Below the pieces are notes generated by a model. It was not told where the DNA came from, did no database searches, and saw only the letters and a program-made list of their open reading frames with translations. This document shows, piece after piece, positions 3,448 to 7,019 of a DNA stretch of 64,000 nucleotides (positions are counted from its first letter, which is position 1; every line of letters begins with the position of its first letter). The translations under genes and the position numbers were made by a program. The stretch is from NCBI GenBank assembly GCA_036436775.1, contig GCA_036436775.1_3676.1, one strand, 5' to 3'. The stretch is from a phage.

Positions 3448-3726
3448 ATGAGCTGTGAAAAATCTTTTTTCTTTATTATTTACGGTAAAGATAACTGCCC
3501 ACATTGTGTAAGAGCAAAAGAATTTGCAGTCAGTAAAGGTCTGCCTTTTGTATATAAGACACTTGGAGAGGGATACACAAAAGAAGAGCTTATTGAGAAG
3601 TGTAGTCCAATCGTCCCAAGAACGTTACCGCAGATCTTCTTAGAAAGCGATCTTGATAGTGTCCATGTAGGTGGTGCCGACGATTTCATCTCTTTTGTTA
3701 AGAATGATTTTGGAGAGAAAAAGTGA
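3448..3726 (+). CDS. Glutaredoxin-like redoxin (T4 NrdC-like)
   Basis: 92-aa ORF with CPHC redox motif and C-terminal LPQIF...VGG.DD pattern typical of glutaredoxins. Confidence 0.75.
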   Translation: MSCEKSFFFIIYGKDNCPHCVRAKEFAVSKGLPFVYKTLGEGYTKEELIEKCSPIVPRTLPQIFLESDLDSVHVGGADDFISFVKNDFGEKK

Positions 3727-5846
3727 AAGTTGTAAAACGGGACGGTAGAGAAGAGGTCTATAACGGAATTAAGGTGATCAAGGCGGCAGAGTCCGCCTTA
3801 CTTGAGTCTGGGCATACTGAAGAAGAAGCTTACCGGATCGCCTGCGCGGTTAATGAAGTTGTTGCTAACAATCTACCAACCGACCAGTGCACGATCTCTG
3901 TAAAAAATATCCATATCCTTGTTGAAGACGCTCTTATGGATATGGGTTTAAAATGTGCAGCCAGAGAATACATCCAGTATAGGCAGACAAGAGATAATAA
4001 CAGAGAGGCAGGTGGAAAACTGCTTGCAGATATTAGTGGCTTCCTGGATCGCACTTGTGATGAATTTACAAAAGAAAACGCAAATAAGCCTACCAATCAT
4101 GTACACACTCATCGTGACCTGCTTGCAGGCATCCTTAGCAAACACCTTGCATCGACACAGATCCTGCCAGACCGTGTCTCCGAAGAGCACAATAAAGGCT
4201 TCATCCATGTGCATGACCTTGACTATTTGATCAGTCCGTTAACAAACTGTTGTTTAGTAAATTATCCAGATATGTTGGAAAACGGATTCAACATTGGTAA
4301 CGCCCATGTCAGTAAGCCGAAGTCAATAGGGGTTGCAACAACAATCCTTAGCCAAATCTCTAGTGCGGTAGCTAGTGCTCAATATGGTGGTCAGACTATG
4401 AGCCATATTGATCATTATCTGGCACAGTATGCTGAAGCAACCTATGAGAAGAACCTTAAATTTTGCCAGGAACATTGGTTGCCAGATGCTGAGACTGTTG
4501 CAATGCAAATGACAGATAAAGACGTGTTTGACAGCATGCAGACGTTGCTTTATCAAATCAATACGTTAACTTCTGTCAACGGGCAAACTCCATTCATCAC
4601 ATTAAGTTTAGGACTGGATACCTCGGTCTTTGGTAGAATGATTACCAAAAACTACTTGAAAGTCCACAAAATGGGTCTTGGTGAAGAACGTATTACACCT
4701 GTGTTCCCTAAAGTGCTGTTCTTCCTAGAAGAGGGTGTCAACATGAACCCTGGAGATCCTAACTATGATTTGAAACGATTAGCTCTGGAATGCTCTGCAG
4801 AGCGGATTTATCCTGACTTTGTTTCTGTTCCACTAAATCGTAAAGTGACAGGCTCGACAGATGGTAAAGTAACGAGCATGGGTTGCCGGAGTTTTCTTAG
4901 CAAATACAATGACTTGGAAACAGGTGAGGAGAAATACCTTGGCAGATTTAACTTAGGCGTTGTTAGCCTTAACCTGCCAATGATTGCGGCAAAAGCTAAG
5001 ACGGAAGGTGTTGATTTCTTTGCCGTTCTTGACGAGTATCTGGATTTGGCATATGAAGCTCACCTTGTAAGAGTTAACCGTCTAAAAGGAACAAAGGCAG
5101 GGCAGAACCCTATCATGTGGTGTGAAGGCGCTCTTGCTCGCCTGGATCCTGAAGAGAGTATTGATAAACTCTTCTATGACGGGTACGCTTCCATCAGTAT
5201 TGGGTATATTGGTGTGTATGAAACCTGTCAGATTTTGGGCAGAGAGGGTGACAAGGCTTTGGCTCTTGGAATACTTCAGCACATGAGAGATGCTTGTGAG
5301 CGATACAAGAAGGAAAGTAGACTAGCGTTTAGCTTGTACGGCACCCCTTCTGAGAGTCTATGCTATAAAGCTGCAACCTGTCTGGATCGTGAATATCCTG
5401 AAGTGTTGAAGCATGAGCATGAATATCTCACCAACAGTTTCCATCAGCCAGTATGGATAAATAGCTCTCCTTTTGATAAGTGGGAATATGAGGAAGGTTT
5501 TGCTATAATCTCCTCTGGTGGCAACATCGGATACGTAGAGACACCAAATCTGAAAAACAACTTAGATGCTTTAGAGGCTCTTGTTGACTTCGGGTATAAA
5601 CACATTATGTATTTTGGTATTAACCAGCCTGTGGATAAATGTCTTAAGTGCGGATTCTCTGGCGAGTTTAGCGCAACAGCTAAAGGATTTGTATGCCCAG
5701 AGTGTGGAAACCATGAAGAGGGAACGATCAGTGTAATCAGACGTGTATCCGGGTACCTGTCTAGTCCAAACTCTCGTCCTTACAATAAAGGTAAGCAAGC
5801 GGAAGTTATAGAACGGGTTAAGCACTACGGAAGTTGTGGTTGCTGA
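3723..5846 (+). CDS. nrdD: Anaerobic ribonucleoside-triphosphate reductase NrdD (class III)
   Basis: 707-aa ORF; N-terminal ATP cone, Zn-ribbon CxxC...CxxC, C-terminal glycyl-radical motif RRVSGYL; GTG start with GGAGAG RBS. Confidence 0.9.
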   Translation: MKVVKRDGREEVYNGIKVIKAAESALLESGHTEEEAYRIACAVNEVVANNLPTDQCTISVKNIHILVEDALMDMGLKCAAREYIQYRQTRDNNREAGGKLLADISGFLDRTCDEFTKENANKPTNHVHTHRDLLAGILSKHLASTQILPDRVSEEHNKGFIHVHDLDYLISPLTNCCLVNYPDMLENGFNIGNAHVSKPKSIGVATTILSQISSAVASAQYGGQTMSHIDHYLAQYAEATYEKNLKFCQEHWLPDAETVAMQMTDKDVFDSMQTLLYQINTLTSVNGQTPFITLSLGLDTSVFGRMITKNYLKVHKMGLGEERITPVFPKVLFFLEEGVNMNPGDPNYDLKRLALECSAERIYPDFVSVPLNRKVTGSTDGKVTSMGCRSFLSKYNDLETGEEKYLGRFNLGVVSLNLPMIAAKAKTEGVDFFAVLDEYLDLAYEAHLVRVNRLKGTKAGQNPIMWCEGALARLDPEESIDKLFYDGYASISIGYIGVYETCQILGREGDKALALGILQHMRDACERYKKESRLAFSLYGTPSESLCYKAATCLDREYPEVLKHEHEYLTNSFHQPVWINSSPFDKWEYEEGFAIISSGGNIGYVETPNLKNNLDALEALVDFGYKHIMYFGINQPVDKCLKCGFSGEFSATAKGFVCPECGNHEEGTISVIRRVSGYLSSPNSRPYNKGKQAEVIERVKHYGSCGC

Positions 5847-5847
5847 T

Positions 5848-5877
5848 ACTTGACAAAAGCCACAAGGATGTGGCATA
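5848..5877 (+). promoter_or_regulatory. Sigma70-like promoter (TTGACA-N18-CATATT) with embedded 16-bp palindrome GCCACAAGGATGTGGC
   Basis: Hexamers and palindrome read directly; palindrome centre about 40 nt upstream of the ATG at 5908. Confidence 0.5.
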
Positions 5878-5907
5878 TTGTTGGCACAGTGAGCTAGGAG
5901 GTACAGT

Positions 5908-6024
5908 ATGTCTACAGGTATTTATAAAATTTGCAAGTGCGGATGTCGTTGCAATCTTCGTTGGTGCAAGGCACTGGACGATTTTATTTGGCATTGCCCT
6001 GAATGCGATGCGGAGTATCTATGA
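5908..6024 (+). CDS. Small Cys-rich (Zn-ribbon-like) protein, 38 aa, translationally coupled to nrdG
   Basis: AGGAGG RBS 7 nt upstream; 8 Cys (KICKCGCRC...CPEC); stop TGA overlaps nrdG ATG (ATGA); below ORF-track size cutoff. Confidence 0.5.
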   Translation: MSTGIYKICKCGCRCNLRWCKALDDFIWHCPECDAEYL

Positions 6025-6494
6025 ACATTGTCGGATACACAGAAATATCTTACACCGAAGGGCCAGGTATTAGAACCGCCTTGTGGGTATCTGGGTGCCC
6101 ACACGCTTGCCCTGGTTGCTTTAATCAGGCATTTTGGTCAAAAGATAAGGGGAGAGAGTTCACTGAAGAAGATTTACAAAAAATCTTGTCAGATTTAGAT
6201 AACCCATCTGTGTGCGGTATCTCTCTGCTGGGGGGAGAACCATTAGCATACTATAATGAGCCAGATATTATTAGCCTGATGGAGAAAATTAAGGAAAAAT
6301 TTGGTGACAAGAAAACTATTCTTGTATATACTGGGTTCACATTTGACCATATCTCTAGTGATGTTCTTAAACTGGCTGATATCATCATTGACGGTAAGTA
6401 TGTAAAAGATTTACCAACCAAGAAACCGTTCCGAGGCAGTGATAACCAAAGAATGTTTAAAAAAGTATCAGGCGGTTGGGTTCAGGTAGACTAG
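6021..6494 (+). CDS. nrdG: Anaerobic RNR activating enzyme NrdG (radical SAM)
   Basis: Cys cluster CPHACPGC (radical-SAM CxxxCxxC variant) near N-terminus; start moved to ATG 6021 (GGAG RBS); follows nrdD. Confidence 0.85.
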   Translation: MNIVGYTEISYTEGPGIRTALWVSGCPHACPGCFNQAFWSKDKGREFTEEDLQKILSDLDNPSVCGISLLGGEPLAYYNEPDIISLMEKIKEKFGDKKTILVYTGFTFDHISSDVLKLADIIIDGKYVKDLPTKKPFRGSDNQRMFKKVSGGWVQVD

Positions 6495-6497
6495 TTG

Positions 6498-6527
6498 TTG
6501 ACAAAGTTTTGTTTAGATAGGTATAAT
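6498..6527 (+). promoter_or_regulatory. Sigma70-like promoter TTGACA-N18-TATAAT
   Basis: Consensus hexamers read directly, upstream of a small ORF with a GAGGAGG RBS. Confidence 0.6.
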
Positions 6528-6558
6528 TATCGTAAAATGAAAGCAGAGGAGGTGCCAA

Positions 6559-6672
6559 ATGGCTAAAAAAGCCTTGAAGAAGGCGTACAAAAAAGAAATT
6601 GCGCTTGAGCTTAAGAAAAAACATAAGCGTGAAAAGAAACATCATGAGGATGAAGAGGGGGTGCAACAGTGA
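6559..6672 (+). CDS. Small lysine-rich basic protein (37 aa)
   Basis: ATG with GAGGAGG RBS directly after a consensus promoter; MAKKALKKAYKK...; not in ORF track (<60 aa). Confidence 0.45.
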   Translation: MAKKALKKAYKKEIALELKKKHKREKKHHEDEEGVQQ

Positions 6673-7019
6673 CACAAGAACGTATCGATTTGGCTAATAA
6701 GTTTGTAGATCTCATTTTGCCACGGTTAGTTACTCAACATGCAGACGCTATTTCTACTAATCTTGATGGCTTACGTCTAATGCTGAATCGCACAGATGAC
6801 CCTCGTATTCGGGCTGATTTAGAAGCCTCTGCCAACAAACTGGAAAAGTTCTTGCAAGTAGACACGCAAGAAGCCTTACACAAAATTATGGTGGAAGGTT
6901 TCTCTAAAGAATTTACCATTAAAGAGCTTAAGGAGCTGATCCACCAAGAAGAGATGAATATCCGAGTTCAGGCTGTTGCAAGCAGCATGGAAGCGGCTAT
7001 TGAAAAACTGTTGCAGTAA
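6669..7019 (+). CDS. Hypothetical protein
   Basis: 116-aa ORF, GTG start overlapping upstream stop. Confidence 0.5.
   Translation: MTQERIDLANKFVDLILPRLVTQHADAISTNLDGLRLMLNRTDDPRIRADLEASANKLEKFLQVDTQEALHKIMVEGFSKEFTIKELKELIHQEEMNIRVQAVASSMEAAIEKLLQ

Follow-up and report, generated by a model that had tools for sequence, protein, structure and literature searches.

A strongly conserved cysteine-rich mini-gene between nrdD and nrdG of an rV5-like phage encodes a candidate zinc-ribbon protein that is probably not a dedicated ribonucleotide reductase partner

Between nrdD and nrdG, encoding the large subunit and the activase of the class III (anaerobic) ribonucleotide reductase (RNR), the phage DNA analyzed here carries an open reading frame of 38 codons that is rich in cysteine codons and overlaps the start of nrdG. 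We asked whether this small ORF is a gene, and whether its product belongs to the anaerobic RNR system, of which the first-pass annotation had suggested it could be a metal-binding partner or regulator. The DNA (referred to as the window, i.e., the whole stretch of 64,000 nucleotides that was analyzed) was found to be a segment of an rV5-like (Vequintavirus) phage. Positions 5600 to 6600 were 94–97% identical to JES2013, Pr121LW, rV5 derivatives and about 120 other records.

The small ORF, its signals and its neighbors

The small ORF encodes the peptide MSTGIYKICKCGCRCNLRWCKALDDFIWHCPECDAEYL (38 aa). The peptide contains seven cysteines (C9, C11, C13, C15, C20, C30, and C33), not eight as counted at first, and these have the spacing CxCxCxC-x4-C-x9-CPxC. 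His29 is an eighth possible ligand and is replaced by Tyr in several homologues. The perfect AGGAGG ahead of the start codon and the ATGA overlap with nrdG were found as first described, the latter being an arrangement typical of translational coupling (Table 1). There are 206 ORFs of 30–60 aa that begin with ATG in the six frames of the window. Three of these have seven cysteines and three are preceded by a perfect AGGAGG, and the small ORF is the only one to have both, a combination that exceeds chance.

Table 1. Position of the small ORF, its putative expression signals and the neighboring genes in the window
Feature	Position	Strand	Remarks
Glutaredoxin-like gene (grx)	3448–3726		4-nt overlap with nrdD, at the GTG start of the latter
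nrdD, class III RNR large subunit	3723–5846	+	ATP-cone, NRDD and glycyl-radical domains; own CxxC...CPEC zinc ribbon; C-terminal SCGC tail
Sigma-70-like promoter match, TTGACA-18-CATATT	5850–5879	+	10/12, TG before the -10; in the gap between nrdD and the small ORF; consensus match only
6-bp hairpin, GCCACA-AGGA-TGTGGC	5859–5874		Just 3' of nrdD; weak terminator-like shape
Shine-Dalgarno AGGAGG of the small ORF	5896–5901	+	6 nt before the ATG
Small ORF	5908–6024	+	38 codons; ATG at 5908, TGA at 6022–6024; read from the letters and the ORF listing
GGAG in the last codons of the small ORF (A-E-Y-L)	6012–6015	+	5 nt before the nrdG ATG
ATGA start/stop overlap, small ORF/nrdG	6021–6024	+	nrdG ATG at 6021–6023
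nrdG, class III RNR activase (radical SAM), 157 aa	6021–6494	+	TIGR02491; start as in annotated relatives
Promoter match TTGACA-18-TATAAT	6498–6527		Perfect match; precedes the second mini-ORF
Second mini-ORF, 37 aa	6559–6672		Lys-rich; phrog_7670; perfect AGGAGG
Next gene	6669–7019		GTG start overlaps the stop of the second mini-ORF (GTGA)

An AGGAG-type site was present upstream of the small ORF in most relatives, even where the upstream DNA is unrelated, with the variants TGAGG on contig L019 and GAGGA, 9 nt upstream, in podoviruses. The GGAG inside the 3' end of the small ORF is likely to be the ribosome-binding site of nrdG. It was unchanged in all 14 alleles that we collected (see below), including the podovirus copies that lie ahead of a DNA ligase gene. 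An alternative in-frame ATG of nrdG at position 6003 is without a ribosome-binding site. The promoter match located between nrdD and the small ORF may drive a transcript of the small ORF and nrdG. NrdG scored 149.5 bits against TIGR02491, for which the cutoff is 126.1, and matched Fer4_12 and Radical_SAM as well.

The genes nrdB, grx, nrdD, the small ORF and nrdG form a chain of tightly packed or overlapping genes in this order. The C-terminus of NrdD past the residues RVKH (encoded at 5826–5846 of the window, and compared with loci L005, L006, L010, L011, and L016) was hypervariable among rV5-like phages. A Cys pair is frequent in this tail (YGSCGC in the window; YGSCSC, NNGDCCSIY, and GNVDCCPLSK in others) and is missing where the protein ends in HV or HFH, and the variable tail is reminiscent of redox-active tails in RNRs of other classes. 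The product of the second mini-ORF, downstream of nrdG, is hypothetical in relatives.

Conservation of the reading frame and breadth of the family

The small ORF had been described as unannotated, which is true only of the ORF track used for that description. Many related records, including those of JES2013 (gp108, YP_008530353.1, "ribonucleotide reductase"), Pr121LW, and rV5 (hypothetical protein), annotate this 38-aa CDS, and some omit it. The product matched phrog_20137 (PHROGs v4) with an E-value of 2.3e-31 and 108.6 bits, residues 1–38 aligning to profile positions 1–38 of 38. It does not differ from JES2013 gp108 in size (38 aa), position or nrdG overlap and is a member of that family. 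Although phrog_20137 is labeled "ribonucleotide reductase," Pfam and NCBIfam scans of the peptide gave no match at E up to 1, RNR-related families included, and literature searches found no study of the gene or of any phrog_20137 member. The label appears to derive from the position of the gene. Our analysis found no evidence for the RefSeq/PHROG label, and it should not be propagated.

The small ORF was found in 122 phage records. Besides Vequintavirus-type phages, a few SP6-like podoviruses carry it. Among 5.8 billion proteins, searched with an alignment query led by a 41-aa allele, the family made up 14 clusters, and a profile run against 1.84 billion representatives retrieved nothing but this family and one spurious repeat protein (P0015). 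Three loci were found in IMG/VR and five real loci in the metagenome collection, the latter on rV5-like contigs. One further candidate (L020), on a high-GC bacterial contig, was a chance off-frame match and was rejected. No homologue was found in the 185,579 bacterial and archaeal genomes searched, E. coli phages and phage-like contigs being the only sources of homologues. This family is already catalogued but uncharacterised and has a very narrow range. Eighteen unannotated "Campylobacter phage" records (MG065647–MG065690), with Campylobacter jejuni given as host, shared about 97% identity with rV5-like phages of E. coli at this locus, and their host label looks doubtful.

We gathered 14 distinct alleles of the small ORF from phage records, IMG/VR, metagenomes, and Logan assemblies. 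The alleles vary mainly at the N-terminus, which contains CKCGC in the 36-aa and 38-aa forms, CKHCGC in the 41-aa form, and CKDCGC preceded by a Lys/Glu-rich extension in the 53–54-aa forms. Within the shared core of 32 codons the variable sites were distributed 9:4:22 over codon positions 1, 2, and 3, and each of the seven Cys codons alternated between TGC and TGT while always specifying Cys. Comparison of the small ORF with the most divergent alleles gave pS values of 0.76–0.98 and pN values of 0.04–0.10 (Nei-Gojobori proportions), and over the pairwise comparisons pS reached 0.98 with pN at most 0.12. Together the site distribution, the Cys codons and the pS and pN values indicate that the small ORF is a real coding gene under very strong purifying selection. 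For the same pairs of lineages pN was 0.09–0.17 for the glycyl-radical domain of NrdD and 0.32–0.36 for NrdG. Constraint on the mini-protein therefore exceeds that on either flanking enzyme.

Conservation of the frame between nrdD and nrdG in related phages, put forward in the first-pass annotation as a check on the ORF, was observed in the 120 Vequintavirus-type records recovered with the junction. Damaged copies were rare, and comprised a C-terminal frameshift in phage Alma (P0003) and a fusion with a downstream ORF by deletion (P0014). In the latter, which is metagenomic, an in-frame deletion has left residues 1–20 of the Cys-rich ORF fused to the C-terminal portion of a 78-aa ORF of the type described below for phage A51.2.

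Genomic contexts and the link to ribonucleotide reductase

The small ORF was found in three genomic contexts. Most Vequintavirus genomes have the small ORF after nrdD and before nrdG, which it overlaps by ATGA, and in all Vequintavirus records seen the small ORF lies between nrdD and nrdG. In rV5-like genomes of the A51.2 type the small ORF ends with TAA and is followed by a gap of 150 nt and an ORF of 78 aa, and there it is the 78-aa ORF, not the small ORF, that is coupled to a different nrdG allele. The third context is that of the SP6-like podovirus ACG-C91 (Vectrevirus) and contig L007, in which a 36-aa allele is located between a gp1.7-like nucleotide kinase gene (DUF3310) and the gene for an ATP-dependent DNA ligase. 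The ACG-C91 allele is 77% identical to the window protein at the amino acid level, and its stop overlaps the start of the ligase gene as ATGA. At the nucleotide level the homology of the window with ACG-C91 extends from the start codon to ATGAAYAT, and the flanks are unrelated. Metagenomic podovirus contigs also carry the small ORF before DNA ligase, again with the ATGA overlap. NrdB, NrdD, NrdG, and glutaredoxin (Grx) were not found in ACG-C91 by annotation or by tblastn, and no radical-SAM gene accompanies the podovirus copies of ACG-C91 and L007. The small ORF is thus not confined to phages with nrdD and nrdG.

The 78-aa ORF of A51.2 (L011 3268–3504) is annotated as "putative minor capsid protein." The copy of the small ORF in ACG-C91 is unannotated in both the GenBank and the RefSeq record. 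In relatives, nrdD and the gap between nrdD and nrdG were heavily invaded by genes of homing-endonuclease type (GIY-YIG, HNH/NUMOD4, T5orf172-like, and DUF723+HNH; L004 279–1439, L005 1–541, 1806–2600, and 3279–3971, L006 3467–4261, and L011 2015–2947), and nrdD was broken into two or three called pieces. Such genes sometimes lie upstream of the small ORF, as with GIY-YIG in SophiaRose and HNH in L005. The insertions in the gap were always upstream of the small ORF, and none was found between the small ORF and nrdG.

In Vectrevirus the slot between kinase and ligase holds at least three unrelated mini-ORFs (L003 3998–4108 in ACG-C91, L013 773–889 in K1E, and L014 773–946 in vB_EcoP_B), which share the ATG start and the ATGA overlap with the ligase gene and have nearly identical flanks. 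This suggests cassette-like allelic replacement. The K1E ORF (38 aa, MTCPNCGSEETEHVVMSDTYHFYFCHSCDTTIEEEEAV) starts at the same place after the nucleotide kinase gene and is, like the small ORF, a candidate zinc ribbon with two knuckles (CxxC...CxxC), but it has four Cys and an unrelated sequence. The two were aligned by hhalign over only 8 columns at the CPxC knuckle, which shows no real relation. The vB_EcoP_B ORF agrees in start and ligase overlap but has 57 aa, no Cys and again an unrelated sequence.

A NrdG homologue was found in 2142 phage records as against the 122 with the small ORF, which is missing from about 94% of the records encoding NrdG. In the phi92-like phage ECGD1 no ORF intervenes, and nrdD itself overlaps nrdG. 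The NrdG of rV5-like phages exists in at least three alleles that are 52–56% identical, whereas the core of the small ORF is 86–100% identical, and the ATGA overlap with nrdG is kept for two different nrdG alleles.

Because the small ORF also occurs in phages without RNR, its product is probably not a dedicated RNR partner. The part of the initial proposal that concerns metal binding is plausible. The part that concerns RNR is weakened, although not disproved, by the RNR-less podoviruses, the uncoupling in A51.2, the divergence of NrdG, and the difference between 122 and 2142 records. As an accessory of class III RNR the product would be a Cys-rich metal or redox mini-protein that aids reduction or assembly of the NrdG cluster, or that protects NrdD or shuttles electrons to it. 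It might also act on the NrdDG of the host, which would explain its presence in podoviruses without RNR. We consider such a role possible but doubtful. It is favored by the position between nrdD and nrdG, fixed in roughly 120 Vequintavirus-type records, by the overlap that persists across two nrdG alleles, and by the podovirus copy coming after the nucleotide kinase gene, another gene of dNTP supply. A precedent is the Cys-rich C-terminal domain of class II RNR, sometimes encoded by a separate gene (NrdJb), which binds Zn and shuttles reducing equivalents; this domain has 150–220 aa and six conserved Cys, which exceeds the number required for Zn, the additional pair being redox-active (PMC5704485). 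The small ORF is like this domain as a Cys-rich Zn module tied to RNR with surplus Cys, but the analogy is functional only, since the class II enzymes depend on a thiol reductant and a sequence relation to the small ORF was not found. Against an RNR role, the small ORF is equally conserved in ACG-C91, its A51.2-type copy is uncoupled from nrdG, its core is near-invariant next to a diverging NrdG, most phages with NrdG do without it, and it matches no RNR-related Pfam or NCBIfam family. Furthermore, the NrdD of the window is, by its length and family match, of the E. coli/T4 type, an enzyme that uses formate and does without a thiol shuttle.

Predicted fold and candidate functions

An AF2 model of the product, built on an alignment of 13 sequences, had three strands (residues 16–20, 25–30, and 35–37) at a mean pLDDT of 69.9, i.e., moderate confidence. 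The top Foldseek matches in the PDB were zinc ribbons (the Rpb9 N-terminal ribbon, the NUDIX ribbon 3cng, and ZifS), with TMq 0.68–0.75 and rmsd 1.1–1.4 Å over 32–34 residues; the E-values (≥0.78) are not significant because the protein is so short. In BFVD its own family came first, followed by generic viral zinc-ribbon ORFans. A sequence search of solved structures gave generic knuckle matches only (E ≥0.6), and hhalign found no real relation to the C-terminal zinc ribbon of NrdD (probability 7%). The C30-P-x-C33 knuckle was invariant, and the N-terminal pair was CxC in the 36–38-aa alleles and CxxC in the 41–54-aa alleles. The model suggests, with moderate confidence, a three-stranded zinc-ribbon mini-protein, and the model, the structural matches and the invariant cysteines agree with the Zn-ribbon-like character first noted and make the product a probable metal binder.

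C9/C11 and C30/C33 are the predicted Zn ligands. As is predicted for the small ORF product, classical Cys4 zinc ribbons (Rpb9 N-terminal, NUDIX 3cng, Thermus thermophilus ZifS 8yoz, and ribosomal protein L40E) have two knuckles, the C-terminal one being CPxC, that flank a three-stranded sheet. They differ in that their sequence similarity to the small ORF is not significant and in that the first knuckle of the small ORF is CxC. The three additional Cys of the small ORF (CxCxCxC-x4-C) have no counterpart in classical Cys4 ribbons. No exchange was seen at these residues (C13, C15, and C20), which may provide a second site for metal binding or redox chemistry. A rubredoxin was considered and rejected, as there was no Pfam match and the knuckles are 18 residues apart compared with about 29 in rubredoxin (CxxCG...CPxCG). 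Moreover, no rubredoxin was among the sequence matches to solved structures, and among the Foldseek matches the CBS-rubredoxin-like protein TA0289 was the sole rubredoxin-like one and scored weakly (TMq about 0.5).

A zinc ribbon could also be a regulator that binds DNA, RNA or RNA polymerase in the manner of Rpb9/TFIIS-type ribbons and tunes phage or host expression. The best structural matches are indeed ribbons associated with RNA polymerase, and the conserved basic residues K7, K10, R18, and K21, together with the Lys/Glu-rich N-terminal extension of some alleles, would suit such a role. However, these similarities are common to the fold in general and lack statistical significance, no operator-like repeats in the DNA were linked to the small ORF, and the core has a modest net charge. 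We find this explanation unlikely.

The reading that we favor, with about as much confidence as reservation, is that the small ORF encodes a free-standing, metal-stabilised mini-protein of zinc-ribbon type, which is an autonomous accessory gene product of E. coli phages likely to dock on a host protein, and that the overlap with nrdG is an arrangement for expression. The two knuckles C9/C11 and C30/C33 would hold one Zn, and C13, C15, and C20 would make the second metal or redox site. The protein would dock on something common to E. coli infections, most likely a conserved host protein, and the phage's own NrdG would not be its target. The protein is near-invariant in the company of divergent NrdG alleles and in two phage families that are unrelated and have only the host in common, which points to a target from E. 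coli, or else to a generic ligand, and it is only from this invariance across divergent phage backgrounds that we infer a host target. For nrdG the requirement would be an upstream ORF from which its translation can be coupled, a part played by nrdD in phi92-like phages, by the small ORF here and by the 78-aa ORF in A51.2. Because nrdG is coupled to whichever ORF lies upstream, the overlap would reflect expression logistics and not partnership. The mini-gene itself would supply a ready-made ribosome-binding site and start overlap and so leave the gene behind it undisturbed. The fixed nrdD-nrdG position in Vequintavirus and the kinase neighbor in podoviruses tell somewhat against this reading, as they leave room for a role in DNA-precursor metabolism, of which action on the host NrdDG could be part. 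The neighbors of the small ORF in both phage families belong to DNA-precursor or DNA metabolism, which hints weakly at a role in that area.

A more specific form of the host-target reading, which we regard as speculative and improbable as a whole, is that of a self-contained and horizontally exchanged cassette. Its own ribosome-binding site at the 5' end, and the ribosome-binding site and ATGA that it donates at the 3' end, would spare an essential gene (nrdG or DNA ligase) from polar damage. Its product would be a two-site protein (Zn2Cys7-like, or Zn plus redox) that neutralises or redirects a conserved E. coli factor in DNA-precursor supply, e.g., a nucleotide-depleting defence or the host anaerobic RNR machinery.

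It is very improbable that the small ORF is only a leader, the translation of which delivers ribosomes to nrdG while the peptide has no function. The ATGA overlap, the nrdG Shine-Dalgarno sequence embedded in the small ORF, and a predicted hairpin that partly covers the GGAG are in line with a leader. However, purifying selection at the amino acid level exceeds that on NrdG, stand-alone copies that end with TAA keep the same protein, and RNA structure near the nrdG ribosome-binding site was no more stable than in shuffled sequences (z -0.39 and -1.5). Scarcely credible, and rejected, is a RiPP precursor of the SCIFF/ranthipeptide or sactipeptide kind that the product of the adjacent radical-SAM gene would modify: a 38-residue peptide with seven Cys, encoded just upstream of such a gene and overlapping it, would fit, but that neighbor is a plain 157-aa NrdG equivalog beside nrdD with SPASM and peptide-maturase models far below their cutoffs, the ACG-C91 peptide has no radical-SAM gene, the A51.2 copy is separate from nrdG, and neither a leader/core architecture nor a nearby protease or exporter gene was found. 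A fusion of the small ORF to NrdG by -1 frameshifting was also rejected, as a slippery site is missing and the small ORF is also found ahead of a ligase gene or on its own.

Altogether, functional work on the small ORF is more promising than on most phage ORFans, given its tighter constraint than that of the neighboring enzymes, its restriction to E. coli phages, and its occurrence as a cassette of exactly the ORF in two phage families that are unrelated. Provided that the peptide is produced and binds metal, it would join the poorly charted phage proteins of less than 50 aa that are often missed by gene callers.
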